Shown here: positions 1-50,050 of the stretch, piece after piece
Layout: each line of letters opens with the position of its first letter
Position numbering within the stretch: position 1 is the first letter of the stretch
From: an uncultured Candidatus Saccharibacteria bacterium
Lineage (GTDB): Bacteria; Patescibacteriota; Minisyncoccia; Minisyncoccales; CG1-02-41-26
Direction: 5' to 3'
DNA: 60,960 nt
Assembly (NCBI GenBank): GCA_964348225.1
Contig: CAYGBM010000025.1
Span: 1-60,960 of the forward strand
Notes under the pieces: model-generated
Seen by the model: only the letters and a program-made list of their open reading frames with translations
What the model was told of the DNA's origin: nothing
Databases searched by the model: none
Program-made: the position numbers and the translations under genes

Positions 1-81
1 CAAGCGTTGTCGCATAGACGGAGCCAGTTACTCACTAATATAACCGAAACAAGCAATTTCCCCCTTCAAGAGAGGGGATTT
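1..81 (+). repeat. Cassette-boundary element copy A (long form; left part cut by window edge)
   Basis: Core GTTGTCGCATAGACGGAGCCAG at 6-27, 26-nt block at 27-52, hairpin at 59-78. Nearly identical to the copy at 6018-6136. Confidence 0.85.
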
Positions 82-82
82 A

Positions 83-91
83 TGATAGAAT
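83..91 (+). promoter_or_regulatory. Extended -10 promoter (TGaTAGAAT), ATG 7 nt downstream
   Basis: TG at 83-84, TAGAAT at 86-91, start codon at 98. This geometry predicts a leaderless mRNA. Confidence 0.5.
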
Positions 92-97
92 AAAATA

Positions 98-925
98 ATG
101 AAACCAACAATCTTTTTAATCGGTCAAAATATAAATATATATTCTGGTGACGGAAAACATCAGTTTGCGAGAACAGGTGAGATGGGTTTTTACCATCTAA
201 AGAAAGCTGGAGCAACAGGTGTGATTTTAGGGCATTCAGAAGTAAAGGATGAACCAGAAGTAGTTAATAAAAAATGGAAATCAGCTTTAGAATATAATTT
301 ATTTGATAACGTTGTTTTAGTAGGAGGAGATTGGGAAGATTTAGAAAAAGGATGGGATAAGAGCAATGAGCAAGAAATAAAAGGAATGAAAAATAAGTTC
401 AAAGACAAACTCCTAACCATATTGAGTAGCATAGATAAAGAAGCCATTGAAAAAACAGTTTTTGGCTATGAACCAAGCTGGGGAACAAGAGGAAGTGGCA
501 AAGAAGATGTTTTACCGCCTCAACCACCACAGATAGAGAATATGTGTTCGTTTATGAGAGAAATAATAGAAAAAGAGTATGGCAAAGACATATCAAGGGA
601 TATAAGGATTATTTACGGAGGCAGTTCTTCTCCTGAAAGAACAGAAGAGATTATGCCTTCAGATAATGTTGATGGTTTGATTTTAGGTTCAGCTGGTAAA
701 ACAGTGGATTGGGCTCAAAAAATAGGAGAAGGAATACAAAAAGCTATGAGAGTCAAACAATCAGTTAGGAAGGGAGTATTAGTATTTAACTGGAAGGCGT
801 ACGAATTAGAAGAGCCATATGCAGATTTCTTAAAAGTTATAAATAGTTTTGACAGTAATCTTATTGAGATTTATCTGGCTCCCATAGCAACAGAATTGCT
901 GGAGGTAAAGAATTTGTTGACGTAA
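98..925 (+). CDS. Triosephosphate-isomerase-like protein, apparently circularly permuted
   Basis: TIM motifs appear out of order: GQN..TGE..GHSE, then YEPSWGTRGSG, then IIYGGS, and the normally N-terminal FNWK...APIA segment sits at the C-terminus. Confidence 0.6.
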   Translation: MKPTIFLIGQNINIYSGDGKHQFARTGEMGFYHLKKAGATGVILGHSEVKDEPEVVNKKWKSALEYNLFDNVVLVGGDWEDLEKGWDKSNEQEIKGMKNKFKDKLLTILSSIDKEAIEKTVFGYEPSWGTRGSGKEDVLPPQPPQIENMCSFMREIIEKEYGKDISRDIRIIYGGSSSPERTEEIMPSDNVDGLILGSAGKTVDWAQKIGEGIQKAMRVKQSVRKGVLVFNWKAYELEEPYADFLKVINSFDSNLIEIYLAPIATELLEVKNLLT

Positions 926-987
926 CGTTATAGCATAGACGGAATCAGCAATTTCCCCTTTCAAGAGAGGGGATTTTGTTTTGTTTT
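924..987 (+). repeat. Cassette-boundary element copy B (short form)
   Basis: AACGTTATAGCATAGACGGAATCAGCAATTTCCCCTTTCAAGAGAGGGGATTTTGTTTTGTTTT. It starts inside the stop codon of the upstream ORF and lacks the 26-27 nt block. Confidence 0.85.
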
Positions 988-1103
988 GCCTGCCGAAGCC
1001 TTGGCGAAGGTAGGGGGTTGATTTTTAGTGGTTTTTGTTTAAGATGGTTTTAGCTATACGAGTGAGTTCTATGTGGTCATTTTGAGAGAAAGGAGAGGTA
1101 ATT

Positions 1104-1814
1104 ATGGACGAGCTAAAGGACAAAATTATCGTGGCTTTGGATGTTGACACTGAAGAGGAAGTTAAAGCTCTTGTAGAGACGCTTGGCTCCCAGGTCGGAT
1201 GTTTCAAGATCGGTTTGCAGTTAATTACTTCCATAGGGCCACCTCGAGCTATACAACTTGTCAAAGATTGCGGCGGAGAGGTGTTTTTCGATGGTAAGTT
1301 TGATGATATTCCCAATACTGTCGGCAATGCCTCCAGAGTGCTTGCAGAATTCGGTGTCAAGATGTTCAATGTCCATGCTTCTTGTGGTATTGCGGCTATG
1401 ATGGAGGCGGTCGATAACAAAGGGAATGCACTGGTTCTCGCCGTCACCGTACTGACTTCTCTTGAGGAGAATAATGCCCATTTGATATTCGGAAAGCCAA
1501 GTAAGGCAGCAGTGTTGCAGTTTGCCAGAGATGCCAAGAACGCTGGTATGGACGGGGTTATCTGCTCACCTCAAGAACTGGAACTTCTGGGTCAGCAGCC
1601 AGACCTTAAAGACTTCTTGAAGGTGACTCCTGGCGTAAGGCCCGTGTGGGCTGCCACAGGGGATCAGAGGCGGACAATGACACCTGGCGAAGCAATGAAG
1701 GCTGGAGCGACTGCACTCGTGATAGGACGTCCTGTCAGACAACCCCCAGAGGAAATTGGTGGCCCAGTGGAGGCCGTCAAACGTATACTTGATGAAATAG
1801 CAGGATACGTATAG
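1104..1814 (+). CDS. pyrF: Orotidine-5'-phosphate decarboxylase
   Basis: Motifs IVALD, KIG, DGKFDDIPNT, VTPGVRP, GDQRRTMTPGEA and LVIGRPV. A strong SD (AAAGGAGAGG) lies upstream. The gene is visibly more GC-rich than its neighbours. Confidence 0.9.
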   Translation: MDELKDKIIVALDVDTEEEVKALVETLGSQVGCFKIGLQLITSIGPPRAIQLVKDCGGEVFFDGKFDDIPNTVGNASRVLAEFGVKMFNVHASCGIAAMMEAVDNKGNALVLAVTVLTSLEENNAHLIFGKPSKAAVLQFARDAKNAGMDGVICSPQELELLGQQPDLKDFLKVTPGVRPVWAATGDQRRTMTPGEAMKAGATALVIGRPVRQPPEEIGGPVEAVKRILDEIAGYV

Positions 1815-1868
1815 CAACAATGCAATACGTTTTGCGTATCAATAACCCACTTAGGACTCATGATTCAT

Positions 1869-1904
1869 AAAGCTTGCTTAGTAAAGTATGAAAGGCAAGC
1901 TTTT
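1869..1904 (+). terminator. Intrinsic terminator after pyrF
   Basis: AAAGCTTGC / GCAAGCTTT 9-bp stem followed by TTTT. Confidence 0.7.
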
Positions 1905-1920
1905 CAATTATTCTGCCAAT

Positions 1921-2087
1921 AAACAGGTTCTCCTCCTTCGATAAATCTATCCGTCGCTACTACGTAGCTATGAAATAGCGTAGTATAGCTTCGGAAGGAC
2001 GCAGTAACGTGGTTGTATAGACGGAGCCAGTTAGTCGCTTATTATAACCACAACAAGCAATCTCTCCTTTCAAGAGAGGGGATTTTT
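1921..2087 (+). repeat. Cassette-boundary element copy C (long form with extra 82-nt palindromic insert)
   Basis: AAACAG, then an 82-nt imperfect palindrome (1927-2008), then GTGGTTGTATAGACGGAGCCAG, the 27-nt block, a hairpin and a T-run. Confidence 0.8.
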
Positions 2088-2124
2088 TAGAAAGTATAGT
2101 GAGTAGCAGGGCGGGGTAAATTTA

Positions 2125-2133
2125 TGGTATACT
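2125..2133 (+). promoter_or_regulatory. Extended -10 promoter (TGgTATACT), ATG 7 nt downstream
   Basis: TATACT at 2128-2133 and start codon at 2140. No SD is present. Confidence 0.5.
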
Positions 2134-2139
2134 GGGACA

Positions 2140-2505
2140 ATGAGAACTCAAACCAAAAACTTTGTTGAGGTTTGTATCTACGAGGTCAAGCCAGAAAAGA
2201 CTGAAGAGTTTGAACAATTAGTAGACAGAGTTGCAAAACACCACAAAAACTTTAGGGGTGTTATTGATGTTAAATATATCAAAAGAACCCACAGACCGGT
2301 TGATTTTGGAGGAGCAACAAAAGGAAAGCCCGCAATAAAGCTAACAAAGAAGCCTCAAAGCATAACCTATATTCTTTATTGGGAGCTTAAAGACGAGAAA
2401 GTTCATGCTAAAGCTACTAAGGCAGGGCTTGAGAGATTTTTTAAAGAATTTAGAAGATGCTTGATAAAACCACCGAAGATAATTTTAGGCGAAAGAATCC
2501 AATAA
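2140..2505 (+). CDS. Small hypothetical protein, possibly ABM/Dabb-like alpha+beta barrel
   Basis: 121-aa ORF between boundary elements. It weakly resembles antibiotic-biosynthesis-monooxygenase-type domains (VCIYEVKPEK..EEFEQL..; ..LYWELKDEKVH). Confidence 0.35.
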   Translation: MRTQTKNFVEVCIYEVKPEKTEEFEQLVDRVAKHHKNFRGVIDVKYIKRTHRPVDFGGATKGKPAIKLTKKPQSITYILYWELKDEKVHAKATKAGLERFFKEFRRCLIKPPKIILGERIQ

Positions 2506-2540
2506 ACAGGTTCAAAAAATCGCCAAGAAGGCGGTTTTTG
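2504..2540 (+). repeat. Minimal boundary variant (AAACAGGTT motif plus simple terminator)
   Basis: AAACAGGTTC overlaps the stop codon at 2503-2505. It is followed by a CGCC/GGCG hairpin and TTTTT. The conserved core is absent. Confidence 0.5.
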
Positions 2541-2565
2541 TGTTAAAATAGAACAGACAAACAAT

Positions 2566-3330
2566 ATGGAAAAAGTGTATTTCAAGAATTCAAAAGGAGA
2601 TAATCTGTGTGGGGTATTATCAAATCCAACCTCAAGCAAAGAGAAAGCAATTATAATAGTTTGTCACGGATTTAGCACCAGCAAAGACAGTCGGACATAT
2701 AAAAGATTAGAAGAAACTTTAAATAGCCATCAGATGTCAACCTTTCGCTTTGATTTTTTTGGTCACGGAGAGAGCGAGGGGAGGTTTGAAGATATAACAA
2801 TTTCGGAAGCAGTTGATGATATTTTAAATGCCATTTCCTTTTTAAAGAACAAAGGTTATTCCAAAATTGGTCTTTTCGGTTCAAGTTTTGGAGGTATTGC
2901 CAGCATCATAACAGCTTCAAAAACAAATGATTTGTTTATTCTTGCTTTAAAATCTCCAGTATCAAACTATCAAGAAAGAGATTTAGCAGTGAAGACGAAG
3001 GAAGAATTGAAAGATTGGAAAGAAAAGGGTTATAAATACTATGTTAGTGGAGACGGCAGAAGATTGAAACTAAATTATACCTTTTTTGAAGATTTTGAAA
3101 ATAATAATGGCTATGAAGCTGCAAAGGAAATAAAGATACCGACTTTAATAGTTCACGGAGACAAAGATGAATCTGTGCCAATTGAACAGAGCAAAAAAAC
3201 AGCAAATTTAATTGAAGATTGCAAGTTAGAGGTTGTTAAAGGGGCAGACCATAGATATTCCAATCCTAAAGATTTTGAGAAGATGTTAAGTTTAATTTCT
3301 GGTTTTTTATTAGAAAATCAGAATAGGTGA
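2566..3330 (+). CDS. Alpha/beta-fold hydrolase
   Basis: HGF oxyanion region, GHGESEG, nucleophile elbow GSSFGG, then HGDKDESVP and ADH (Ser-Asp-His order). Confidence 0.8.
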   Translation: MEKVYFKNSKGDNLCGVLSNPTSSKEKAIIIVCHGFSTSKDSRTYKRLEETLNSHQMSTFRFDFFGHGESEGRFEDITISEAVDDILNAISFLKNKGYSKIGLFGSSFGGIASIITASKTNDLFILALKSPVSNYQERDLAVKTKEELKDWKEKGYKYYVSGDGRRLKLNYTFFEDFENNNGYEAAKEIKIPTLIVHGDKDESVPIEQSKKTANLIEDCKLEVVKGADHRYSNPKDFEKMLSLISGFLLENQNR

Positions 3331-3357
3331 TATTCTAAATCACAACCCCTACTGTAA

Positions 3358-3453
3358 GACAGCCCCTAACGTTGTCGTATAGACGGAGCCACTTAGTCCC
3401 TTATTATAACCGCAACAAGCAATTTCCCTTTTCAAGAGAGGGGATTTTGTTTT
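3358..3453 (+). repeat. Cassette-boundary element copy D (long form)
   Basis: GACAGCCCCTAACGTTGTCGTATAGACGGAGCCACTTAGTCCCTTATTATAACCGCAACAAGCAATTTCCCTTTTCAAGAGAGGGGATTTTGTTTT. Confidence 0.85.
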
Positions 3454-3512
3454 GGGTATTAAATTCAATGCGTTTTGTTTGACCGTCAATAAGGGGCGTA
3501 TTATGATGTAAT

Positions 3513-4307
3513 ATGGAGCCTAAAATAGATTATATAACCGGAGATAACTTTGGTGAGTATTGGATTGTTGTGGCAGAGTTTTATCACGGTAAGTTTATGT
3601 CACCACGTTATCCAGACTTGCTGATGCAATTTCTTAAGCGACTTGGCGTTAAGAAAGTTCTTGACGCTGCCTGTGGTATTGGAGAGCCAAGTTTGGATGT
3701 TGTTGAAAAAGGATTTCCTCTTAGCTTAAGTGATGGCGATGCATCAATGTTAGGTGTTTGCCAAGCTCGTGCCAAGGAAAGAGGACTTGATATTCCTATA
3801 TTCCATTCAAAATGGATTGACTTGCCCAAGAAGACAAAAGAGATTTATGATGCTGTTTTATGTCTTGATAGTTCAATAACCTATGTTAATACTTGGGCTC
3901 AAGGAGAGCCAGCTATCAGCATTAACAGAGCACGCTACAACATACTTGAAAGCTTGAAAGCTTTTTATGATATTCTGGCCCCTGGAGGATATGTTGTGAT
4001 TGGGCTTGCCAAGTATGCTTTTGAGGATTCGGATGAATTAATTATTGACTATGGTACTCGTTTGGTTGAGGGTGTACCTGTGCATCATATATGGAAATTG
4101 AAATGGGATTTTGCGACAAAAATCAAGTCTTTCACGCTTATATTTAAGTTTGCAGGAAAGACCCACGTGAAAGAAATGTTGGGTTATATGCTTTTGCCGA
4201 ATGAGTTAAAGACATTGCTACGTAAAGCAGGTTTTCCCGATATTTCTATTCAGGAGATTGCTCCAGGAGAGTATGACAACAACTTTGTTGCGCAGAAGCT
4301 TTTATAA
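3513..4307 (+). CDS. Class I SAM-dependent methyltransferase
   Basis: Motif I VLDAACGIGEPS, post-I acidic residue, and LAPGGYVVI. Confidence 0.7.
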   Translation: MEPKIDYITGDNFGEYWIVVAEFYHGKFMSPRYPDLLMQFLKRLGVKKVLDAACGIGEPSLDVVEKGFPLSLSDGDASMLGVCQARAKERGLDIPIFHSKWIDLPKKTKEIYDAVLCLDSSITYVNTWAQGEPAISINRARYNILESLKAFYDILAPGGYVVIGLAKYAFEDSDELIIDYGTRLVEGVPVHHIWKLKWDFATKIKSFTLIFKFAGKTHVKEMLGYMLLPNELKTLLRKAGFPDISIQEIAPGEYDNNFVAQKLL

Positions 4308-4399
4308 AATAGGTTCTAACCCTTCAATGGCTTCAGGGCGAGCATTGTCTCATAGACGGAGCCAGCAATTTCCCCTTTCAAGAGAGGGGATTTTGTTTT
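4308..4399 (+). repeat. Cassette-boundary element copy E (short form)
   Basis: AAATAGGTTCTAACCC...CATTGTCTCATAGACGGAGCCAGCAATTTCCCCTTTCAAGAGAGGGGATTTTGTTTT, directly after the stop at 4305-4307. Confidence 0.85.
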
Positions 4400-4439
4400 A
4401 GATAGGGTGGTTCAAAGGTATTGAACCATTACATCGGGA

Positions 4440-4468
4440 TTGACATGTTTAAATAGTTGGTGTAAGTT
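4440..4468 (+). promoter_or_regulatory. Sigma70-type promoter (TTGACA-17-TAAGTT)
   Basis: -35 at 4440-4445 and -10 at 4463-4468. It lies in a block homologous to 6137-6181. Confidence 0.5.
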
Positions 4469-4525
4469 ATTAATGTTGGTGTAAATTGTTAGATCGTTAA
4501 GTTGAATTAGACAAAGGAGAAAAAA

Positions 4526-4741
4526 ATGGACATTCCAAAAGATAAAGGATATCCAGCTGACAGTGTGCAGTGTGACGGTTGTGGAGGACACGGATGTCAA
4601 ACGTGTAATGATAGGGGGTGGTTAACTCCACGAGACCATCCAGCGGGACGGCGATGTATGAGGTCATCCTGCAATAAACCACTTCACCCAACAGATGTTG
4701 CTGTCTATTGTTCTAATGAGTGCGCCTCAGATGACGCATAG
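4526..4741 (+). CDS. Small Cys-rich zinc-finger protein
   Basis: CDGCGGHGCQTCNDRGW is a DnaJ-like CxxCxGxG zinc-finger motif, with further Cys pairs. SD AAGGAG lies 6 nt upstream of the ATG. Confidence 0.5.
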   Translation: MDIPKDKGYPADSVQCDGCGGHGCQTCNDRGWLTPRDHPAGRRCMRSSCNKPLHPTDVAVYCSNECASDDA

Positions 4742-4806
4742 TGTCGATTCCATTACAAGACATCATTCGTCTTGGATTTCTTGGAGCATTAATTTCTCCT
4801 TGAAAT

Positions 4807-4853
4807 GAACCTCCTCTAATCAGTTAAAGTTATTGAAGGAGGTTCTTCTTTTC
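4807..4853 (+). terminator. Intrinsic terminator
   Basis: GAACCTCCT / AGGAGGTTC 9-bp stem followed by TTCTTTTC. Confidence 0.65.
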
Positions 4854-4870
4854 TAAAAGTTCTATTTCTT

Positions 4871-4947
4871 GGCGTATAGGAGCCAGTTAGTCGGTTATTA
4901 TAACCGCAACAAGCAATTTCCCCTTTCAAGAGAGGGGATTTTGTTTT
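4871..4947 (+). repeat. Cassette-boundary element copy F (long form, core shortened by 3 nt)
   Basis: GGCGTATAGGAGCCAGTTAGTCGGTTATTATAACCGCAACAAGCAATTTCCCCTTTCAAGAGAGGGGATTTTGTTTT. It contains the perfect palindrome GGTTAT-t-ATAACC. Confidence 0.85.
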
Positions 4948-4963
4948 GCTTTCAGCGGTTTTG

Positions 4964-4972
4964 TGGTAGAAT
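4964..4972 (+). promoter_or_regulatory. Extended -10 promoter (TGgTAGAAT)
   Basis: The same TGTGGTAGAAT string recurs at 9429-9439, in both cases just downstream of a boundary element. Confidence 0.45.
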
Positions 4973-4999
4973 AGGATAATACTAAGTAACTACAAAAAC

Positions 5000-5971
5000 A
5001 TGTGGAAGTGGCTCAACAAAGGAATATCTACACCAATAGCTGTAGCTATTGTATTGATATTAGTAATCATAGTAGGTAGTTTTGCCTGGTGGCAATATGG
5101 GGAAATACGGAAGGAAAAAGATGAATTTTCTTGTAGAGATGATAATGATTGTATTTATGGATGGCGAGATAAATGTATCATGAAGTGCGTAAATAGAAAT
5201 ACTCCTAAGATGGTGCCTTGCCCCTTAATTAAACCAGCTGTCTGGTCTTCTTATATTTGGGACAATATATCTTGTGAATGCGTTAATAATAAATGTGTTG
5301 AAGACAAAGAAGCATTTTGCCAAAAAGCCTGCGAAGACTTTAGAAATGATAGAGATGAAATTGCTAAATCCGCTTTTTTAGCTGAAAGATGTGGAGATAT
5401 ATTGGAGTGCGAAGGATTAGAAAAAACAGATATATGGACGACAATATGGAAAGAGTTTTTATTAAGTTCACAAAATATTTCGGAAGATTATTTTAATAGT
5501 CATATTTCTGTTGAATCTTTTGATCTTTCAGATTGGAAGCAAGGAACTTCATTTAGAATGAACTATGATATTAACATTGACTGGGCAACTATAAGATCCT
5601 GCGACCATTTTTTAATCAAAAGAAAAGGCGAAACAGACTATCTAACAAAAGACGAAATTTATTCTATTCCGACCCATGAAGGGGGACTAAAGGATAGAGT
5701 ACTGTTGAGTAATGCTTGTGGTAACTCAAAGAAGCTGAAAGAGTTTGACAAAATAATAAGTCAGAGTGAGGTAGCACCAAAACTAAAGCAATGTCACAGC
5801 AGTATAGAATGGTCATCTGAAAAAGCAGTAATATTAACCAATGAAGGCAAGTTAGTTGTTAACGCTTACGGAACAATTGATCATGATCAAAATAAATGTA
5901 AGTTCGCCTCTCTGGATTTAGAAGCAGGAGAACTTATTGAATGTAGAGATACAACATGTTGGGTTGATTAA
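5000..5971 (+). CDS. Membrane-anchored Cys-rich protein of unknown function
   Basis: N-terminal hydrophobic helix (PIAVAIVLILVIIVGSFAWW) followed by a Cys-rich region. I recognise no family. Confidence 0.5.
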   Translation: MWKWLNKGISTPIAVAIVLILVIIVGSFAWWQYGEIRKEKDEFSCRDDNDCIYGWRDKCIMKCVNRNTPKMVPCPLIKPAVWSSYIWDNISCECVNNKCVEDKEAFCQKACEDFRNDRDEIAKSAFLAERCGDILECEGLEKTDIWTTIWKEFLLSSQNISEDYFNSHISVESFDLSDWKQGTSFRMNYDINIDWATIRSCDHFLIKRKGETDYLTKDEIYSIPTHEGGLKDRVLLSNACGNSKKLKEFDKIISQSEVAPKLKQCHSSIEWSSEKAVILTNEGKLVVNAYGTIDHDQNKCKFASLDLEAGELIECRDTTCWVD

Positions 5972-6017
5972 GGATGAAGACCAAGGGATACGTTAAGGGA
6001 ATTGTGATTAACTTACG

Positions 6018-6136
6018 AAACAGGTTCTAACCCTTCGACAGACTCAGGGCAAGCGTTGTCGCATAGACGGAGCCAGTTAATCACTATTATAACCACAACA
6101 AGCAATTTCCCTTTTCAAGAGAGGGGATTTTGTTTT
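6018..6136 (+). repeat. Cassette-boundary element copy G (long form)
   Basis: AAACAGGTTCTAACCCTTCGACAGACTCAGGGCAAGC, then the core, the 27-nt block, a hairpin and TTTTGTTTT. Confidence 0.9.
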
Positions 6137-6175
6137 AGATAGAGTAGTGCTAAGGTATTGAACCGGAACATAAGC

Positions 6176-6203
6176 TTGACAGTGATGCATGGTATGATAA
6201 TAT
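6176..6203 (+). promoter_or_regulatory. Sigma70-type promoter with extended -10 (TTGACA-16-TGaTAATAT) for the TA pair
   Basis: -35 at 6176-6181, TG at 6195-6196, -10 at 6198-6203. Confidence 0.6.
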
Positions 6204-6230
6204 AGATGTAATACAAATTATTACAAAAAT

Positions 6231-6446
6231 ATGCGAGAAGTAATTAATATATCACTACCAAAAGAGTTAAATAGGTCTGTAGAAGAAATAGTAAAAAAGG
6301 GTAACTACGCTACTAAGAGCGAGTTTTTTCGCGAACTTTTGCGCCTTTGGATTGAAGGCAAAATTCTCCGAGAGTTAGCAGAAAGTCGAAAAGAACTTGC
6401 TTCTGGCAGGGGAAAAATCCTAAGATCATTGAAGGACTTACGATAA
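6231..6446 (+). CDS. Ribbon-helix-helix (CopG-like) antitoxin
   Basis: 71 aa. ISLPKEL..VEEIVKKGNYATKSEFFRELLRLW is a typical RHH pattern. It lies directly upstream of a RelE-like ORF. Confidence 0.75.
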   Translation: MREVINISLPKELNRSVEEIVKKGNYATKSEFFRELLRLWIEGKILRELAESRKELASGRGKILRSLKDLR

Positions 6447-6464
6447 TTTCATTTTCGTATTCAA

Positions 6465-6731
6465 ATGAAAATTTTATATTCGAGCAAATTCGCTCGTGAG
6501 TATCGAAAGTTACCGTTAAGAGTTAAGAGAATTGCCGAGAAGAAAGAACAAATTTTTAGAAAGAATCCTTTTGATCCAAGACTCAAAACTCACAAGTTGA
6601 AAGGAAGCCTTAAAGGGTTTTTTTCTTTTTCTATAAATCAAAAATATCGAATTATTTTTGAATTTGCTAATTCCAATATAGCTTGGTTTCATTCCGTTGG
6701 AGAACATTCGATTTATAAATTATGGGATTAA
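6465..6731 (+). CDS. RelE/YafQ/ParE-superfamily toxin
   Basis: 88 aa. The sequence DPRLKTHKLKGSLKGFFSFSINQKYRIIFEF is typical of RelE/YafQ mRNA interferases. Confidence 0.75.
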   Translation: MKILYSSKFAREYRKLPLRVKRIAEKKEQIFRKNPFDPRLKTHKLKGSLKGFFSFSINQKYRIIFEFANSNIAWFHSVGEHSIYKLWD

Positions 6732-6769
6732 GCTTCTCTTGTAAACTGTCCATCGCTGGGCAATTTTTA

Positions 6770-6829
6770 GTTGTCGCCAAACAGGTTTACCCCGTATAAA
6801 ACTTTGTTTTTATGTGGGGCGGTTTTTTG
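6770..6829 (+). repeat. Boundary variant (GTTGTCGCC plus AAACAGGTT plus a different terminator)
   Basis: GTTGTCGCCAAACAGGTTTA, followed by the CCCCGTAT/ATGTGGGG hairpin (6790-6819) and a T-run at 6823-6828. Confidence 0.55.
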
Positions 6830-6836
6830 ATAGAAT
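6828..6836 (+). promoter_or_regulatory. Extended -10 promoter (TGaTAGAAT), ATG 7 nt downstream
   Basis: TAGAAT at 6831-6836 and start codon at 6843. Confidence 0.5.
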
Positions 6837-6842
6837 TAGTAT

Positions 6843-7382
6843 ATGAAATTGCTAAAAGAAATTAATGACTATGATGTTGGTCTTGGTCCCAAAGAGAGTT
6901 TTGAAAAGAGATACCAGATAAGAAAAGCTGGCAGAGCTGTTTTGTTTAATGGAGATAAAATATCTCTACAGTATGTAGCAAAACACAAATTTCATAAACT
7001 CCCTGGCGGAGGTATAGAAGCAGGGGAAAGCATTGAGGAAGGTCTAAAAAGAGAAGTTCAAGAAGAGGCGGGATGCGATATAAATATTGGCGACCCTATT
7101 GGAATGATAATTGAATATCGTGACGAGTTTGACCAGATTCAAATATCTTATTGCTTTTTTGCTCAAGTAGAAGGTGACATTGGCGAATCAGTTTATGATG
7201 AAGGAGAAGTTGAAGAAAATTTTAGACCAATGTGGGTTACTCTTGACGAGGCGATTGATTTAATAGAAAAAGATGACACCGACGACTACCAGGGAAAGTT
7301 TATCAAAATAAGAGATTTAACTTTATTAAAGGAAGCTAAAAGGCTCTTAGAGAGTAAAACAGCCCCTAACATTGTCGCATAG
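6843..7382 (+). CDS. NUDIX hydrolase
   Basis: Nudix box GGGIEAGESIEEGLKREVQEEAGC. Confidence 0.85.
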   Translation: MKLLKEINDYDVGLGPKESFEKRYQIRKAGRAVLFNGDKISLQYVAKHKFHKLPGGGIEAGESIEEGLKREVQEEAGCDINIGDPIGMIIEYRDEFDQIQISYCFFAQVEGDIGESVYDEGEVEENFRPMWVTLDEAIDLIEKDDTDDYQGKFIKIRDLTLLKEAKRLLESKTAPNIVA

Positions 7383-7427
7383 CCGGAGTCAGCATCCAAA
7401 AACCCTTATAAAATAAGGGTTTTTGGA
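7358..7427 (+). repeat. Cassette-boundary element copy H (core variant with a different hairpin)
   Basis: AACAGCCCCTAACATTGTCGCATAGCCGGAGTCAGCA, then a 15-bp perfect hairpin. The stop codon of the NUDIX ORF (7380-7382) lies inside the core. Confidence 0.75.
7395..7427. terminator. Bidirectional hairpin between convergent genes
   Basis: TCCAAAAACCCTTAT-aaa-ATAAGGGTTTTTGGA, a 15-bp perfect stem with A/T-rich arms. Confidence 0.7.
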
Positions 7428-7522
7428 TTGAGGATAGGGTGAGGAATAAGATAGTTTATATATGTTTGTACAATTTCTACTCTTTCGAGACAATGGTCAA
7501 CAAATTTTTTTATTTAAACTGA

Positions 7523-8314
7523 CTAAAGATGCGGAAACACTGCGTTTGAAAACTCCCTGGTTAAGGAAACCCCATATTTGATATATTCAGGGAAATTATC
7601 ATTATCAACTACCATAAATTCTGTGTCAGGATTATTTTCTTGAAGATCCCTCAGTATATCAAGTTTTTGGAGTTCACTTCCTGATGAAATGCTGGCTGCG
7701 ACCAGATCCATATTCTCATTGTTTCTGACAATCGAGAAGCTTTTTATAAGTTCTTTAACATCATTAAGATCAAGGCCAGAAGGGTCCAAGCTGGAGCTCT
7801 CGGTGGTGTAGATGGAATCTTTATCGATAAACTCTTCAACCTCTTTAAGGTGTTTTGGGTCCTTTAGATCTTTTTCAACTCTGTCTTTTTGTCTGATGGT
7901 TATGAAACCGATCTTAGATTCAGGATAGAGTGCCCTTAAATTTTTAAGCAATACTTTGGTTGCAGGCCTGACATAAGTCGCTACCGGCTCTTTACTTCCA
8001 TTTTCCCATTTGGCTTCAGCGATCGTATCATCAATATCAAAAAGAATCTCGTGCTTAGAACTTGGTGTTTGAGAATGCATCCGTTTCGCTTCTTCCCAAA
8101 CCCACTTTAAAAACCTTTTTTCTGATTCAAGGCATTTTTCAATCCTTTCTTCGAACCTCTCTGGCTCAAGACCGACTTTTGGAGCCCTCTCAGCTACGTA
8201 TTCTTTATAGAAACCCCGTGCCTCTTGCTCAACACCTTCCCATATTTTTTCTATTTCTTCATGACCGGACTCTTTCTCTGGAATGTTAAACTGTGGTCCT
8301 CTTTCAATTCCCAT
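7523..8314 (-). CDS. HAD-superfamily-like hydrolase with unknown N-terminal region
   Basis: FDIDDTI (DxDxT motif I) and a late MVVDND acidic motif. A candidate -10 TATAAT lies on the minus strand at 8352-8357. Confidence 0.5.
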   Translation of the reverse strand: MGIERGPQFNIPEKESGHEEIEKIWEGVEQEARGFYKEYVAERAPKVGLEPERFEERIEKCLESEKRFLKWVWEEAKRMHSQTPSSKHEILFDIDDTIAEAKWENGSKEPVATYVRPATKVLLKNLRALYPESKIGFITIRQKDRVEKDLKDPKHLKEVEEFIDKDSIYTTESSSLDPSGLDLNDVKELIKSFSIVRNNENMDLVAASISSGSELQKLDILRDLQENNPDTEFMVVDNDNFPEYIKYGVSLTREFSNAVFPHL

Positions 8315-8550
8315 ATTTTTAACTAGTTTAAGATTTTCAATCTTTTTCTAAATTATAGTGAAAATAGCGCAAAAAGTAAAACAAGCCTCGAGCTTTTTTT
8401 GGTTAAACTTACAAGTTTTAATCTCCTTAACGCTTTCTTCTTTGTTAAGGATATTGTAGTACTTTTAAGAAGACAGTGTGTCAACGAAAACTGTGGTCAA
8501 TGGGTTACACCAAAACTCCATCTGGAATTTCTGGGGAAATACCCATCAAA

Positions 8551-8580
8551 AAGTTTCGAACGTTGTTCAGTCCCCGGAAC
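8551..8580 (+). repeat. Partial boundary-element variant I
   Basis: AAGTTTCGAACGTTGTTCAGTCCCCGGAAC matches the left part of copy J (9332-9360). No hairpin module follows. Confidence 0.65.
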
Positions 8581-8722
8581 AAAGTAGTATGTTGTGATGT
8601 TGCGAGGAGAATGCGCGACACCCTATTTTTTAGTAGCCGTTATGCGCTTATCATGATTTCGTCTGGCTCGAGCCATGATTGCGCATAACGGCTTTGAATA
8701 TATGAGCTATGTTGTTTGCATT

Positions 8723-9022
8723 TCACACACCCATTTGTATATCGTACACCATAGAAACAGCTCCGTTGCGGTGTCTAACTTCTTCTTCACAGACTACCAC
8801 ACCATTGAGAAGCCGAAAGATTTCTAAGATATTCCCTTGGATGTCTTTTGCCCCTCCTAACTTTTTTGTGACTGGCCACAAGAAGTGAGCATCGCTCCCA
8901 TCTAATGAGATCTTCACTCTGTAGAGTGCATCCAGCTTTTTTTCCTTATGGCGCGGAGCACCTGGTCCAGCCTCTTTTCTGCACGGCTCTTCAATGAGAT
9001 AAAGCCTGTATGTGAAAGCCAT
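8723..9022 (-). CDS. Hypothetical protein
   Basis: ORF with an ATG at 9022 preceded by GGAGG at 8-nt spacing. The track start at 9031 is a GTG that abuts the SD. I recognise no family. Confidence 0.5.
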   Translation of the reverse strand: MAFTYRLYLIEEPCRKEAGPGAPRHKEKKLDALYRVKISLDGSDAHFLWPVTKKLGGAKDIQGNILEIFRLLNGVVVCEEEVRHRNGAVSMVYDIQMGV

Positions 9023-9331
9023 TGTGTTCACCTCCTTTTGCTGTCAGATACATTTCTTTGGGAAAGAAATGTAGCCAGAAACAAAATACCCGCCTTAAGT
9101 AGGCGAGTATTCCAGAGCAAGCTTTTTGGTTCTTTCTCTCTAAAGCCAACCTAAGAACACGCGTCTACAAGAGACGGTCGTAGTTCCTGTGGTTGTTGTC
9201 TTAGAGTAATAATTCATAAAGCAATAAAGCAATGTTCTATATATATAACATATTTATTGCGCAGAGTCAACGGAAAATAGGGGTCAACTCTATTTTTCTA
9301 TTGTTTCAAAGAACGACAGGGCATGTTGGCC

Positions 9332-9423
9332 AGTTTCGAACGTTGTTCAGTTCCCGGAGCCACTTATTCACTATTATAACCGCAACAAGCAATTTCCCCT
9401 TTCAAGAGAGGGGATTTTGTTTT
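9332..9423 (+). repeat. Cassette-boundary element copy J (long form, variant core)
   Basis: AGTTTCGAACGTTGTTCAGTTCCCGGAGCCACTTATTCACTATTATAACCGCAACAAGCAATTTCCCCTTTCAAGAGAGGGGATTTTGTTTT. Confidence 0.85.
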
Positions 9424-9430
9424 GGATTTG

Positions 9431-9439
9431 TGGTAGAAT
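9431..9439 (+). promoter_or_regulatory. Extended -10 promoter (TGgTAGAAT)
   Basis: Lies immediately after boundary copy J and 21 nt upstream of the ATG at 9460. Confidence 0.45.
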
Positions 9440-9459
9440 GGAAGAAGAAAGCCAGACTT

Positions 9460-9939
9460 ATGAAAAAGAAAACTATTCTCATAACCATACTTAGCATCAT
9501 AATTGTTATTGTGGTTGGCGGATTTATCCTCTATTTCAGCTTGCCAGAACCTTTAAGCAGAGGACATAATGATGCACGTGTCTACTCAGCTATTAGCCAA
9601 GCAAGGACTGTAATGGTTTATCTTGAATCGTCAGAAGGTAATTACGATAGCTTTAACTGTGAGCATAAAGACATAGCAAGCATTTGTGAGGAGATTGAAT
9701 TTCGTGGAGGCGAAGCAATAATTGCCCGTGATAAAGCAAGCAGTTCTGAATCTGCTTGCATTTATTCCCTTTTGCCGTATCGTTCCAGTAAAAAGCAGGG
9801 CTTTTGGAGGAAAACAAAAGATTATTGGCTCTGTACTGATTCAAATGGTCAGAAAGGCTACACAACGATTGATCCAGGCAGCAATGGTTATTGCCTTGAA
9901 GGAGAAAGTGCGGTTTGCCCTCCGTTCGTTGAAGAGTAG
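9460..9939 (+). CDS. Membrane-anchored Cys-containing protein, possibly pilin-like
   Basis: The internal ATG at 9460 gives MKKKTILITILSIIIVIVVGGFIL (TM helix), followed by DARVYSAISQARTVMVY. The upstream part of track ORF 9232-9939 reads through repeat J. Confidence 0.55.
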   Translation: MKKKTILITILSIIIVIVVGGFILYFSLPEPLSRGHNDARVYSAISQARTVMVYLESSEGNYDSFNCEHKDIASICEEIEFRGGEAIIARDKASSSESACIYSLLPYRSSKKQGFWRKTKDYWLCTDSNGQKGYTTIDPGSNGYCLEGESAVCPPFVEE

Positions 9940-9950
9940 CAGATTGGGGT

Positions 9951-10017
9951 GCCATCCGGGGAGTCAGTCAGAACGATAATATTCTCTGAAATTCTGCCAA
10001 GGACGGCGGATTTTTTT
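9951..10017 (+). repeat. Degenerate terminal boundary element K
   Basis: GCCATCCGGGGAGTCAGTCAG resembles the copy H core CATAGCCGGAGTCAGC. It is followed by the TCTGCC/GGCGGA hairpin (9993-10010) and TTTTTTT. Confidence 0.45.
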
Positions 10018-10823: not shown

Positions 10824-12063
10824 GTATCATTTTTTTGATGTCTTTGTTTGTGTAGAAGTTTTGGAGAGGGAAGTTGACGATTCTTCTGGCTACCTCAACG
10901 GTGTTGGGGAATTGGGAGAGGTTAATATTATATTTTTTTTGAACCTCTTTATTCAAGATGATTGGGGTGTGCCAGATGCGGGTGGCAAAGATCCCCTTTT
11001 TTCTTAAGCTGACCACAAACTTATCTCTCGGTATATTTTTGGGCACTAAAGCGCTTAAAAAAGTGAAGTGGTTCAAACCAGAGCGATCGCTGCCATTTGA
11101 ACCAGTTGGATTTTGGACTTCAAAGCCCATTTTTTTTAATTCTTGCTGGAAGAAGGAACCGAGTTCCTTCCTTTGATTCAGGGTTGTTGCAAGGTTTTTC
11201 ACCCCGTTAGAAATCCTCTCCCGAGGCAAAGTAGACGTGGGCGGCACTTTATTTCTAACGGGGCTTAGTTGCCAAGCAAAGATGTTTAAAGATACTCTGT
11301 TTATTTTTGAGGGGCGTGGTATTTTTTCTCCTCTGATATATTTAGGAGCGATTTTCCCGGCGTATTTTTTAAACAGGAAACTGAAGCAGGGAAAGCAATT
11401 TAAAAGAGAAACAAAATCCCGCAGAGAAAAATGTGTTGGAGGCAGATCTTTCGGATTCCCGCCTGCACCGAGGCTTCGGCGGGCAGGTCGGATTTCTGGT
11501 TTCGGATTTTTAATTATTGCCATTCCTCCCCGTAAGGTAGGGAAGAGCTTATAAAGACTGAAAAGGGCTGCATCCCCAAAATTGCCTGTATAGTTGCCTT
11601 TGTATTGTACACCTAAACTGTGGGCGCAGTCCTCAATAACCTTGAGGTTGTATTTTTTTGCCACAGCTAATATTTTATCTAAATTGGCTGGCAGCCCATA
11701 GGTGTGGCAGACAACCATGGATTTAACTTCTGGATTCATTTTTTCTTCAATTTGGGCTGGGTCTATGTTAAAAGTTTCTTTTTCAATATCTAAGAAAACA
11801 GGCAAGATATTATATTCTAAAAAAAGAGGAAAGAAAATGTCGCAGATGTAAGAGGGTATCATCATTTGGGAATTTTGGAGCTGAAGTTCTTCAACAATCA
11901 GACGAAAGGCAGAGCGGCCCATATCAGTAAGATAATTCTCTTTTTCAGGAAACATTTCTTTGAGCTTTTCTCTGATATGGGAATCTGGTTTTTTTAGAAA
12001 ACAAAAAAAGAGTTTGGCTAAATTGCTGATATTAAATTTTATTTGAGGGTGAACGAAATACAT
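10801..12063 (-). CDS. DegT/DnrJ/EryC1/StrS-family aminotransferase-like protein with a long internal insertion
   Basis: Motifs IEDCAHSLG, GNFGDAALFSLYKLFP (Lys motif) and a C-terminal fold region. About 100 aa of extra sequence lies between them. Confidence 0.65.
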   Translation of the reverse strand: MYFVHPQIKFNISNLAKLFFCFLKKPDSHIREKLKEMFPEKENYLTDMGRSAFRLIVEELQLQNSQMMIPSYICDIFFPLFLEYNILPVFLDIEKETFNIDPAQIEEKMNPEVKSMVVCHTYGLPANLDKILAVAKKYNLKVIEDCAHSLGVQYKGNYTGNFGDAALFSLYKLFPTLRGGMAIIKNPKPEIRPARRSLGAGGNPKDLPPTHFSLRDFVSLLNCFPCFSFLFKKYAGKIAPKYIRGEKIPRPSKINRVSLNIFAWQLSPVRNKVPPTSTLPRERISNGVKNLATTLNQRKELGSFFQQELKKMGFEVQNPTGSNGSDRSGLNHFTFLSALVPKNIPRDKFVVSLRKKGIFATRIWHTPIILNKEVQKKYNINLSQFPNTVEVARRIVNFPLQNFYTNKDIKKMIQKIKESI

Positions 12064-18009: not shown

Positions 18010-19420
18010 AGAAGATATCCTAATAATAGGAGCAGGGCCTGCTGGTATGGCAGCAGGTTTTGAGTTGCAAAAAGCAGGAAAGCGGTGCACTATCATTGAA
18101 AAGCAAGGGGCAGTTGGGGGGCTTGCCAAAACATTGCAGTATGGAGATTTCAGAACAGACATAGGCCCCCATAGGTTTTTCAGCCAAAACAAATACCTTT
18201 ATGATATGCTCAGAGACTTGCTCGGTGAGCGTTGGGGTAAGGTTGACCGGCTTACCAGATTTTTTATTGGAGGAAAATTTTTTCTTTATCCCATTGACTT
18301 CAAAGAGGCTTTGCTGAAGGTCGGCATTTACAAAGCCTCAAGGATCCTTTTTGATTATTCATTACAAAGAGGTAAGAGGGTATTTGTCAAACGACCAGCT
18401 GTTTCTTTTGAGGAGCAGGTTATCTCAGAGTTCGGCAGGACGCTTGCTGAATTAAATATGCTTAACTATACAGAAAAAATTTGGGGCCTGCCTTGTTCTC
18501 AGATTTCAACTGATTGGTTCCAGCAAAGAATCAAGGGACTTTCTCTGAAAGAGGTTATCAAAAAAATTTTTATAAAGTCAAAAGAAGGGCCCAAGACATT
18601 GGTTGACCAATTTTATTATCCTGATATTGGCACAGGATTAATCTACGAGAGAATGAAAGAGAGGATATTGACGATCGGAAGCAGAATAGAATTTAACAGC
18701 CACCCCATAAAGCTGATTTGCGCTAAGCGTAGAATAAAACAAGCTGTTCTGAGCATTGGAGGAACGCATCATATTCTTGAGCCCCAGTATATTCTCTCTT
18801 CTGTGCCCCTCACAGAGCTTGTTGGGTTATTAGAGCCAGGAGCACCTCAAGGGATATTGGAAAACTTAAAAAAACTGAGATTCAGGTCTGTTGTTGCTTT
18901 CTTTATGACCTTAAAAAAACCTTCAGTTGGGCCTGAGCAATGGATTTATTTCCCTGATAAAGAAATACCTTTTATTAGAATGACAGAGCCGAAAAACTTC
19001 AGCAAAAAAATGTCTCCAGCCAATGAAACTTCTTTACTTTTAGAGTTTTTTTGTTGGGAAAATGACAAGACTTGGAATTTTTCTGCTGGAGAGCTTTTTG
19101 AAATAGCTCTTAAATGGTTAGAAAAGCTTGGATTTGTCAAAAGAGAAGAGGTTATTAACTATTGGATTCACAAAGAAAGACACGCTTATCCTGTATATGA
19201 CTTGCAGTATAGAGAAAATAGGGAAGCTGTTATGAATTATTTAAGGCAGTTTGTGAATCTCCAGCTCATTGGCAGGGCAGGCAGTTTTCGTTACAACAAC
19301 CAGGACCATGCTTTGGAGATGGGAATATTGGCTGCCCGTAATATTATAGAGGGCAATAAATACGACATTGAGCAAGTGGGTTCAGAGCAAAAATATTTTG
19401 AAAGAGGCTACATTAGATAA
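18002..19420 (+). CDS. FAD-dependent oxidoreductase (amine-oxidase/phytoene-desaturase-like)
   Basis: The N-terminal ILIIGAGPAGMAAGFEL..IIEK dinucleotide-binding motif. Confidence 0.7.
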   Translation: MSKEDILIIGAGPAGMAAGFELQKAGKRCTIIEKQGAVGGLAKTLQYGDFRTDIGPHRFFSQNKYLYDMLRDLLGERWGKVDRLTRFFIGGKFFLYPIDFKEALLKVGIYKASRILFDYSLQRGKRVFVKRPAVSFEEQVISEFGRTLAELNMLNYTEKIWGLPCSQISTDWFQQRIKGLSLKEVIKKIFIKSKEGPKTLVDQFYYPDIGTGLIYERMKERILTIGSRIEFNSHPIKLICAKRRIKQAVLSIGGTHHILEPQYILSSVPLTELVGLLEPGAPQGILENLKKLRFRSVVAFFMTLKKPSVGPEQWIYFPDKEIPFIRMTEPKNFSKKMSPANETSLLLEFFCWENDKTWNFSAGELFEIALKWLEKLGFVKREEVINYWIHKERHAYPVYDLQYRENREAVMNYLRQFVNLQLIGRAGSFRYNNQDHALEMGILAARNIIEGNKYDIEQVGSEQKYFERGYIR

Positions 19421-19470
19421 ATTAAAAATTAAGAATTAAAAATTAAAAATTATTTCTACAACAAAAATTC

Positions 19471-31193: not shown

Positions 31194-31383
31194 AATTCCG
31201 ATACATCAAGGAGGGGTCGGGAGGAAAGAATTTCCTCCCGTATCGGAAAACAGCGAGCCCGCCAGCGAGACGTTAGAAACCGAGGGTTTCTAAAGAACAT
31301 AGCTCGCGAGCGGAGCGAGCGAGTATGTTCTCTGTCCTACAAAAACAATAGGCCTGTTGGTCTGTCGGTATCAGATACCGACA
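31169..31383 (+). other. Cluster of five strong hairpins in the cysQ-wzx spacer
   Basis: Stems at 31169-31204 (16 bp), 31218-31240 (10 bp), 31273-31293 (9 bp), 31294-31331 (8+6 bp) and 31363-31383 (9 bp). None has a T-run. Confidence 0.7.
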
Positions 31384-31390
31384 AACTTTT

Positions 31391-43435: not shown

Positions 43436-43492
43436 TCGCTCGTTATCGCTCGCGAACGATGAAGGCTTGAGGCTTAAAGACCTCAGTGAAAA

Positions 43493-50043: not shown

Positions 50044-50050
50044 CCGCTCG

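Follow-up and report, generated by a model that had tools for sequence, protein, structure and literature searches.

What separates the short, unrelated genes at one end of a contig from an uncultured bacterium: an integron, or something else? The contig (CAYGBM010000025.1, from GenBank assembly GCA_964348225.1) is 60,960 bp long. We analyzed it whole and will call it the window; its first base already lies within a copy of the repeat element that separates these genes. For the genes that flank the array, the best homologues are from bacteria named Parcubacteria or Nealsonbacteria, which places the host in the candidate phyla (Patescibacteria). An earlier interpretation of this DNA, made without database searches (the sequence-only reading), described a localized array of single-gene, self-expressed units that are bounded by one conserved element, and this description holds. 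It also proposed that the array is either a divergent integron or a distinct cassette-shuffling platform. We found that the array lacks every integron feature that we looked for and that its repeats have the sequence features of attachment sites for large serine recombinases (LSRs). Our preferred explanation, in which we have moderate confidence and which rests on sequence comparisons, is that the array consists of individually expressed cassettes without a recombinase, each with an attP-like LSR site, and that it lies in a variable island of a Parcubacteria genome.

The repeat resembles a site within recombinase genes

The core of the repeat is ~50 bp long and reads GGTTCTAAC-N16 | GAGCCAG-N8/9-TATTATAAC. 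Viewed as inverted arms around a centre, the array sites read GGTTCTAA-N16|N16-TTATAACC, and a gapless alignment of cores across samples gives GGTTCTAAC-GTCGTCC-CGTACCC-GGAGCCAG-(TTAGTCGC)-TTATTATAAC. The conserved AAC|GTT junction of the sequence-only reading does not survive this alignment: the relatives read AAC-(G/A)TCGTCC, and related sequences break elsewhere.

We scanned metagenome contigs with a pattern for the right-arm block (GGAGCCA..TATTATAAC) and found 14 loci in all, some of which are from the same population as the window. Nearly all of these are arrays or LSR genes. At four of them (L022, L025, L027, and L030), the match is antisense within an open reading frame (ORF). The product of this ORF is an LSR of 539 aa that contains Resolvase, Recombinase, and Zn_ribbon_recom domains, and another LSR is encoded directly upstream. 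On the sense strand of the LSR gene, the site reads GGTTATAATA-N29-TATTATAACC, with perfect 10-bp inverted arms (10/10). It encodes ..K-VIIVSNWL-PTPTGIIT.. and lies ~50 codons ahead of the stop codon. LSRs with a near-identical right half of the site occur in other samples. Protein homology searches show that the family is large and present in several phyla; its nearest solved relative is the catalytic domain of the TP901-1 integrase.

As an independent check, we built a profile from six copies in the window, with the terminator excluded, and compared it to 92.6 kb of other loci: five that were fetched by LSR protein homology only and two pyrF controls. The sole matches were at the 3' ends of LSR genes, in antisense (E = 1.5e-5 in L043, 9.9e-5 in L038, and 0.0039 in L033, with weak matches at the same place in L037 and L035). 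Covariation of the arms between lineages is also seen: both arms read GGTTATAATA in L025, and both read GTTC.GATA in L035. These comparisons indicate that the core of the array is the antisense counterpart of a dyad-symmetric site in the last ~50 codons of a widespread LSR family.

The element might instead have been taken for a forward-strand coding sequence or read-through peptide, given its open frame and codon-like substitutions. The frame of the LSR tail on the opposite strand explains these features better: AGA/CGA, ACC/ACT, and GAC/GAT are synonymous in that frame, so we dropped the forward-coding reading.

The LSR genes have some other features. L025:3100-6910 contains two tandem LSR genes (578 and 539 aa) in a ccrA/ccrB-like pairing, followed by genes for LexA/S24-like and SAVED-domain proteins. 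In L027:4168-5709 (minus strand), the LSR tail is broken after ..SLREQ by ~1.3 kb and the remainder (QLHFIKQFYKANARHSAVAV) is at 4227-4168, as if the region that encodes the tail had received an insertion. In L025, L022, and L027, the LSR coding sequence has a 6-bp hairpin (CTGCTC..GAGCAG) beside the right arm (for instance, L025:6735-6758), with a compensatory change in L022 (CCGCTC..GAGCGG). The position of this hairpin is that of the terminator in the array copies.

Junctions, spacing, and tails

Several comparisons suggest that the site recombines. The LSR genes of L035 (with a full tail) and L037 (with a tRNA tail) are 87.6% identical across 1,497 nt and are unrelated immediately after GACTGGCTCC. 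Among 120 LSR homologues, those of 496-517 aa share the sequence up to 'NWL' and then continue with RGQDSNL, RRQDSNP, or RGEDSNL. These tails are antisense readings of the T-arm and acceptor end of a tRNA. In L038, the junction is 8 nt after a tRNA-Lys gene, within a tRNA-Asn-like 3' fragment, AGTTCGAGTCCTATTCCCGGAGCCA. The end of tRNA-Asn from E. coli (GGTTCGAGTCC..GGAGCCA) matches as well, so the LSR target appears to be a tRNA-Asn-type 3' end. Judging from the aligned genes, these natural junctions (the L035/L037 pair and the short-tail homologues, all of them LSR genes) break at the centre of the site.

The arm spacing distinguishes two classes of half-site. Measured from the predicted centre (G|GAGCCA) in the orientation of the cassettes, the distance to the arm motif (GGTTxxAA) is 16 nt in the gene-borne sites of L025, L027, and L035 and 11 nt in the halves of L033, L037, and L038 that derive from a tRNA. 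In the array sites, the left arm is at 16 nt in all, and the right block, where present, is at 16-17 nt. In serine integrases, the motif for the zinc-ribbon domain is at positions 16-24 in attP and at positions 11-19 in attB (PMC3783163). Given the 16-nt spacing and this published 5-bp shift, the array sites are predicted to be attP-type on both halves.

When they are reverse-complemented, array sites read as C-terminal tails of LSRs. For instance, the tail from L024c, WLPTVDDVRTRIEEHSGHIYVPDV (VIIVINWLPTVDDVRTRIEEHSGHIYVPDV), matches the tail of the intact LSR P0131 (E = 2e-6), L021 gives KVIIRSNWLRIVDDVRTKI, and L028a gives a complete 44-aa tail that ends at a stop codon. In every copy, the homology to the LSR gene ends within 5 codons (0-5) of the outer edge of the right arm.

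Copies and modules in the window

To find copies of the element in the window, we used repeat finding, two pattern scans, and two profile searches. These recovered the nine full or nearly full and four partial copies within 1-10,017 that had been listed before, all of them intergenic or over the ends of ORFs; the TAA at 923-925 and the stop codon of the NUDIX gene (TAG, 7380-7382) are inside the element, as claimed. The profile searches found no copy in the remaining 51 kb (10-61 kb) at E <= 1, which agrees with the sequence-only reading. The few intergenic gaps in that part are served by other, unrelated terminators. The motif YATAGACGGAGCCA has 7 matches with up to two mismatches, versus 0.29 expected from shuffled sequences, and the terminator 19-mer has 8 matches with up to three mismatches, versus 0.16 expected. 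On inspection of the aligned copies, we saw no terminal inverted repeats and no target duplications.

The element is modular. AAACAGGTTCTAAC comes first, often exactly at the upstream stop codon. It is followed by an optional hairpin insert of 21-70 nt (in copies 3, 5, and 7), a block that ends in GGAGCCAG, and an optional block, TTAGTCGCTTATTATAAC (the C module, which is absent from copies 2, 5, and 8). Then comes a terminator, which is mostly T1 (TCCCCTTTCAAGAGAGGGGA and a T-run) and at times T2 (CGCCAA.AAGGCGG and a T-run) or another. Last is, commonly, TGnTAnAAT, 6-32 nt ahead of the next ATG. The copies are as follows, with the extent of the match in parentheses where it differs.

1-81, + strand: copy 1, truncated where the contig begins; the left half reaches 20, with a predicted centre at 20|21 (G|GAGCCA), a variant right arm as far as ~45, and a terminator hairpin at 61-77; a full version with the upstream AAACAGGTTCTAAC module is at L001:1150-1272
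924-987, + strand (931-980): copy 2; left half only (GGAATCAG at 941), right arm absent, T1 terminator 954-973; contains the stop codon of the TIM-like ORF (923-925)
1921-2090, + strand (2004-2088, upstream module from 1921): copy 3; AAACAGGTTC module, hairpin insert of ~70 nt, left half, centre 2023|2024, right arm TTAGTCGCTTATTATAAC to 2049, terminator 2063-2082
2504-2545, + strand (partial, 2504-2540): relic; AAACAGGTTC module joined straight to a T2-type terminator (CGCCAAGAAGGCGG and a T-run)
3356-3453, + strand (3356-3451): copy 4; left half, centre 3385|3386, right arm to 3411, T1 terminator 3424-3444
4307-4399, + strand (4338-4397, module from 4307): copy 5; module A, 21-nt hairpin insert, left half (anchor 4358), right arm deleted, T1 terminator 4371-4390; similar to copy 7 on to the next -35 box (~4434)
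4869-4947, + strand (4869-4945): copy 6; left half eroded (anchor 4879), right arm intact, T1 terminator 4919-4938, then a TGGTAGAAT promoter
6018-6136, + strand (6049-6134, module from 6018): copy 7; module A, 21-nt hairpin insert, left half, centre 6069|6070, right arm to 6094, T1 terminator 6107-6127
6779-6829, + strand (partial): relic; AAACAGGTTT module with another type of terminator (6790-6819); a TGATAGAAT promoter follows, 6 nt from the ATG of the NUDIX gene
7356-7427, + strand (7356-7392, then an unrelated terminator to 7427): copy 8; left half (anchor 7385) over the end of the NUDIX ORF, right arm absent
8547-8578, + strand (partial): left-half-only relic (GTTTCGAAC type) between two minus-strand genes
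9330-9423, + strand (9330-9421): copy 9; GTTTCGAAC-type left half, centre 9356|9357, right arm to 9381, T1 terminator 9395-9414, then a TGGTAGAAT promoter
9951-10017, + strand (partial, weak): very degenerate copy (GGAGTCAG at 9960), terminator 9993-10010, below profile significance; this is the right end of the array

Left-half types, the presence of the right arm, and the terminator (T1, T2, or other) are combined as a mosaic, both within and between samples. The elements do carry terminator hairpins, as the sequence-only reading stated, and its claim that most cassettes have promoters of their own is borne out by a consensus scan, which found an extended -10 box (TGnTAnAAT) 6-32 nt upstream of 7 of the 11 plus-strand genes. 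With a terminator and a promoter around each gene, each gene is a self-contained transcription unit. We propose that the repeated element is a composite: a ~50-bp LSR-type attachment site would be followed directly by an intrinsic terminator and, in most copies, by an extended -10 promoter that would serve the next, often leaderless, gene.

Several of the cassette units are probably leaderless. A number of starts are 5-8 nt after the -10 box, which implies leaderless mRNAs; this includes the genes at 98, 3513, and 6843 as well as genes in L021 and L023. Other cassette genes have a clear Shine-Dalgarno sequence instead, such as pyrF (1104) and the gene at 4526.

Cassette genes and the left extension

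The array in the window contains these genes:

98-925, + strand: TIM-like
1104-1814, + strand: pyrF (OMP decarboxylase)
2140-2505, + strand: unknown, 121 aa
2566-3330, + strand: alpha/beta hydrolase
3513-4307, + strand: S-adenosylmethionine (SAM) methyltransferase
4526-4741, + strand: Cys-rich protein, 71 aa
5000-5971, + strand: unknown, 323 aa
6231-6446, + strand: ribbon-helix-helix (RHH) antitoxin
6465-6731, + strand: RelE/YafQ-like toxin
6843-7382, + strand: NUDIX
7523-8314 and 8723-9031, - strand: two genes inside the array without a family match
9460-9939, + strand: last cassette gene, 159 aa, with an N-terminal membrane helix and without a family match

The G+C content at third codon positions spans a wide range for the cassettes, 0.26-0.47, versus 0.37 +/- 0.03 for the rest of the window, which we take as a sign of foreign content. 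Look-ups of the exact proteins encoded by cassette genes gave no match or matched contigs from the same population only. The flanking DegT gene has no relatives above 59% identity, and synteny via DegT was uninformative.

Since the window is the whole contig, the sequence to the left of position 1 is available only from other assemblies. Four contigs from sister assemblies (L001, L002, L018, and L020) overlap the window, and in these the array continues leftwards for at least 2 kb. The order, read from left to right, is a methyltransferase gene, an element, a pyrophosphatase gene, an element, a PRAI gene, an element, and the TIM-like gene. Together with this extension, the array spans at least 12 kb and contains at least 16 units, each of which has one gene or a few.

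In another lineage of the candidate phyla radiation (CPR), we saw variation next to pyrF. L039 and L040-L042 encode an identical PyrF protein (P0244), always followed by pyrE, and have two very different sets of downstream genes across samples. This points to a variable region beside pyrFE in that lineage; LSR-type sites are absent there. More broadly, LSR-type sites are absent from the contexts of the pyrF homologues.

Related arrays in other genomes and samples

Five of the loci from other samples (L019, L021, L023, L024, and L026) contain arrays with the same architecture as the one in the window. Their neighbours include Hachiman, restriction-modification, GH3, NUDIX, ITPase-like, and toxin-antitoxin genes. 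In the right-arm scan of assemblies from the same samples as the window, the array and one other contig were the only matches. L028 and L029, from the window's own samples, contain two more copies, with an IS3 transposase and a toxin-antitoxin pair of the Panacea type as neighbours.

Other Parcubacteria also show this design. After radC, L035 has an attB-type (11+11) site and a terminator, followed by a TGCTATAAT promoter, a gene, and a AAACAGGTTCTAACC relic, and L026 has an attP-type site, a toxin-antitoxin pair, and a left-half relic. In L025, convergent cargo genes lie between the LSR and a left-half relic that is 3 kb downstream of it. L035 (Parcubacteria DG_72) also has an intact attP-type site within its LSR gene (11,474-11,528), and its attB-type site (18,638-18,680) is 7 kb away on the same strand. 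A unidirectional integrase should delete the interval between attP and attB, so this arrangement is unexplained.

Viral contigs contained neither the element nor a close relative of the LSR. ARAGORN found no tRNA genes in the window, in L020, or in the related loci, which argues against a known tRNA; the tRNA-like 3' fragments in L033 and L035 are incomplete tRNA genes. We also compared the element, by eye, to Xer/dif-like sites, IS200/605-like and IS91-like elements, and the ends of miniature inverted-repeat transposable elements (MITEs). We rejected these because there were no matching arms, terminal repeats, or duplications.

Alternative explanations

The layout of the array is what suggested an integron: short, unrelated, co-oriented genes that include a toxin-antitoxin pair, separated by homogeneous repeats. 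A divergent integron would need unusual attC sites and an IntI-type tyrosine integrase beyond the contig start. We folded the DNA of four copies, on both strands, and saw no attC-like hairpin: only the terminator stem and the small inserted hairpin pair, there is no long imperfect hairpin, and the fold energies are near those of shuffled sequences (z-scores of ~0 to -2.8). Across 13 intergenic regions and both strands, there were 0 pairs of R'' (RYYYAAC) and R' (GTTRRRY) boxes that were 40-160 nt apart. The cassettes of integrons are mostly promoterless and are expressed from Pc, and here a terminator follows each gene and an extended -10 box precedes 7 of 11. The sequence-only reading expected an integrase to the left of position 1; the 2 kb further left contain three more units and no intI (the true end of the array is beyond reach). 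And the element is demonstrably homologous to the sites of serine, not tyrosine, recombinases. With no attC hairpin, boxes, or IntI, the array is indeed not a textbook integron, and its proposed affinity to integrons is lost as well. The integron explanation is effectively refuted, and we give it almost no weight. Of the two possibilities raised before, the second is nearer, in that the sites appear to be attP-like LSR sites, and the shuffling itself is unsupported, as the sister contigs are collinear.

Might the element be a generic terminator of this lineage, or a repeat akin to repetitive extragenic palindromic (REP) or BOX sequences, which only appears to be clustered because the rest of the contig is a long operon-like cluster? 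The element is modular, as BOX elements are; it always has a terminator; and the other 51 kb have few intergenic gaps. But those gaps use other terminators, and in 185,579 species genomes (one per species) the T1 19-mer had single chance matches only. The right-arm pattern was found at few metagenome loci (the 14 described above), nearly all of them arrays or LSR genes. The earlier view that the element resembles a recombination site and is not a generic terminator stands. Terminal inverted repeats and target duplications were not seen either, and we consider a generic repeat to be improbable. Even less probable is a functional RNA, that is, a conserved tRNA-like or small-RNA element in the 3' untranslated region that affects mRNA stability or acts in trans. 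The element is within each mRNA, ahead of the terminator, and its left half resembles the 3' half of a tRNA. However, searches of the window and nine related loci against Rfam 15 gave no match at the gathering score (there were two chance-level matches to eukaryotic families at E <= 1), there is no conserved fold or consistent covariation outside of the terminator, and the conservation fits dyad arms and LSR coding on the opposite strand.

The main rival to our preferred explanation is a stack of fossils: the inert remains of successive integrations of LSR elements, or of recombination between such elements, whose recombinase genes were deleted. The repeats would have been kept for their terminators and promoters and would have spread by homologous recombination or gene conversion, and no cassette would be individually mobile, now or recently. 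We view this as a real possibility, albeit an unlikely one. Arms are eroded, insertions and deletions of the right arm are present, copies 5 and 7 are similar well past the site (to the next -35 box), no LSR is nearby, the sister contigs are collinear, and LSRs do not recombine attP with attP (PMC3783163). On the other hand, the homology to the LSR gene stops 0-5 codons from the right arm in all copies, which would fit selection for an entire site better than random deletion. The same combinations of site and terminator are kept across samples and lineages. Finally, one gene per unit, 16 times over, would be an unlikely residue of 16 decayed elements.

Several observations weigh against our preferred explanation. 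We saw no polymorphism at the level of cassettes: the sister contigs, which are apparently from one population, are all collinear with the window. No ORF of the 61-kb contig (as the sequence-only reading had stated for the window) or of the 2 kb to the left encodes a recombinase domain, of the LSR type or any other. The cognate LSR was not recovered from the same samples, from which the genome is incomplete. The expected tRNA-Asn gene at the end of the array was not seen, in a contig that starts inside a copy and a left extension of 2 kb. Many of the sites in the window have no left-arm motif, have insertions of 21-70 nt, or have no right arm, which argues for relics. PyrF is a conserved CPR protein (65-74% identity), so import as a cassette is not required for every unit. 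And canonical LSRs recombine attP only with attB, not attP with attP (PMC3783163), so an array of attP-type sites is not expected from simple serial integration, and the assembly route is conjectural.

How the array may have formed

Our preferred explanation, of recombinase-less cassettes with attP-like sites, would work as follows. The LSRs of this family would integrate into the 3' ends of tRNA-Asn-type genes, and recombination at the gene-borne site would swap the LSR's own C-terminal tail. We infer both the assembly mechanism and the present mobility: an LSR of this kind, which either acted in trans or has been lost since, may have imported or reordered the cassettes. A possible route is that multi-cassette circles were joined via homologous site/terminator modules and then entered by a single integration. 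Alternatively, interior attP-type sites might reflect a less directional enzyme of the Ccr or TnpX kind. Homologous recombination among the 60-130 bp repeats may now add to the mosaic of left halves, right arms, and terminators. Since many of the sites in the window are eroded, the array is probably largely sedentary today.

A bolder idea, which we think is doubtful, is that this is an analogue of integrons that is run by a serine recombinase, whose LSR has a capture site in its last ~50 codons and is given a new tail by each captured circle. A circle would consist of a site, a terminator, a promoter, and an ORF, and it would insert next to the LSR gene. The new C-terminal tail would be encoded antisense in the flank of the cassette's site, and arrays that are ready to be expressed would accumulate. 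The window would be such an array, with the recombinase beyond the contig or in trans.

Comparison to known systems

Like the attachment sites of known LSRs (of the A118/LI, Bxb1, phiC31, and TP901-1 type), the sites described here are 40-50 bp and have a dyad-symmetric pair of arms that flank a central dinucleotide; relative to attB halves, the arm motif of attP halves is displaced outwards by 5 bp; and integration leaves hybrid sites. The recombinases share the Resolvase, Recombinase, and Zn-ribbon domains. Unlike in those systems, the attP of this family is inside the recombinase's own 3' coding region, so recombination would replace the tail of the LSR. Also unlike them, attP-like direct repeats form an array on recombinase-less single-gene units, each with a terminator and a promoter.

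An attP inside the integrase gene is familiar from archaeal tyrosine integrases of the SSV type, which target tRNA genes and whose int gene is split upon integration. The likeness extends to the site within the integrase ORF, the match to a tRNA 3' end, and the partitioning of the gene. In contrast, the enzymes of the family described here are serine recombinases of bacteria, only the last ~50 codons would be exchanged, and tail-coding fragments are found at every cassette.

Composite islands of the staphylococcal cassette chromosome (SCC) have tandem units that are bounded by direct repeats at one chromosomal target, with CcrAB or CcrC serine recombinases, and many of the units lack a recombinase, as do pseudo-SCC elements, which have no ccr. 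The array similarly has tandem, recombinase-less units between serine-recombinase site repeats, and L025 has two tandem LSR genes. But the target here appears to be a tRNA-Asn-type end instead of rlmH, the units have single genes (0.5-1.5 kb) with a built-in terminator and promoter, and the sites are attP-type by their spacing.

The array shares with sedentary chromosomal integrons its localized, short, mostly co-oriented, unrelated genes (including a toxin-antitoxin pair), with one homogeneous site per gene and with ORF ends that run into the site. It differs in having no attC fold or boxes and no IntI, in its own promoters and terminators, and in its serine-recombinase site. In tRNA-linked islands with tandem att repeats (from the accretion of integrative elements, cis-mobilizable elements or CIMEs, and the tycheposon type), repeats that resemble the 3' end of a tRNA lie between cargo modules, and modules without a recombinase occur. 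Here too, repeats like a tRNA 3' end split the cargo of a variable island, and recombinase-less modules are present. However, these repeats appear to be a mimic of attP, expanded by 5 bp, and not copies of the tRNA end, and the units are far smaller and uniformly equipped for expression. In a literature search, which was not exhaustive, we found no description of an LSR gene whose coding tail contains its attP, nor of arrays in which expression units with a single gene have attP-type sites.

Other features of the contig

Beyond the array, ~48 kb of the window (12,562-60,399) is a cluster for a sulfated, sialic-acid-like surface glycan, which is large for a CPR genome. It encodes ATP sulfurylase/APS kinase, a PAPS reductase-like protein, a sulfotransferase, NeuB, CMP-transferases, many methyltransferases and glycosyltransferases, a Wzy-like ligase, and a flippase. 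Two genes in this cluster have a repeat, CATAG(T/C)CGCTCG(T/C)TATCGCTCG, directly after their stop codons (43,430-43,460 and 50,040-50,060). An AT-rich tandem motif, AATTAAAAATT(C/A)A(A/G)AATT, is at 19,419-19,452, at a gene end, and at 60,855-60,902, within the start of a murB-like ORF at the contig end. This tightly packed cluster also has a 198-bp gap (31,193-31,391) with several G+C-rich inverted repeats (such as GGAGGAAAGAATTTCCTCC and GCTCGCGAGCGGAGCGAGCGAG), which could be a regulatory or structured RNA region.

Significance

These results replace an odd integron with a concrete, testable reading, in which the array uses the attachment sites of a serine recombinase. They also describe a widespread LSR family, present in several phyla, that appears to have attP within its own coding tail and tRNA-Asn-type targets. 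With its distances of 16 and 11 nt, the geometry of the site, the tail, and the tRNA end illustrates the attP/attB spacing rule cleanly in natural sequences, and the site family could yield new pairs of integrases and sites for genome engineering. If the cassettes are mobilized via these sites, then candidate-phyla bacteria would have a second, mechanistically unrelated route to the integron-like stockpiling of genes, in which every cassette would come with a terminator and a promoter. If they are fossils, then the array would still record the accumulation of accessory genes in small, streamlined genomes.

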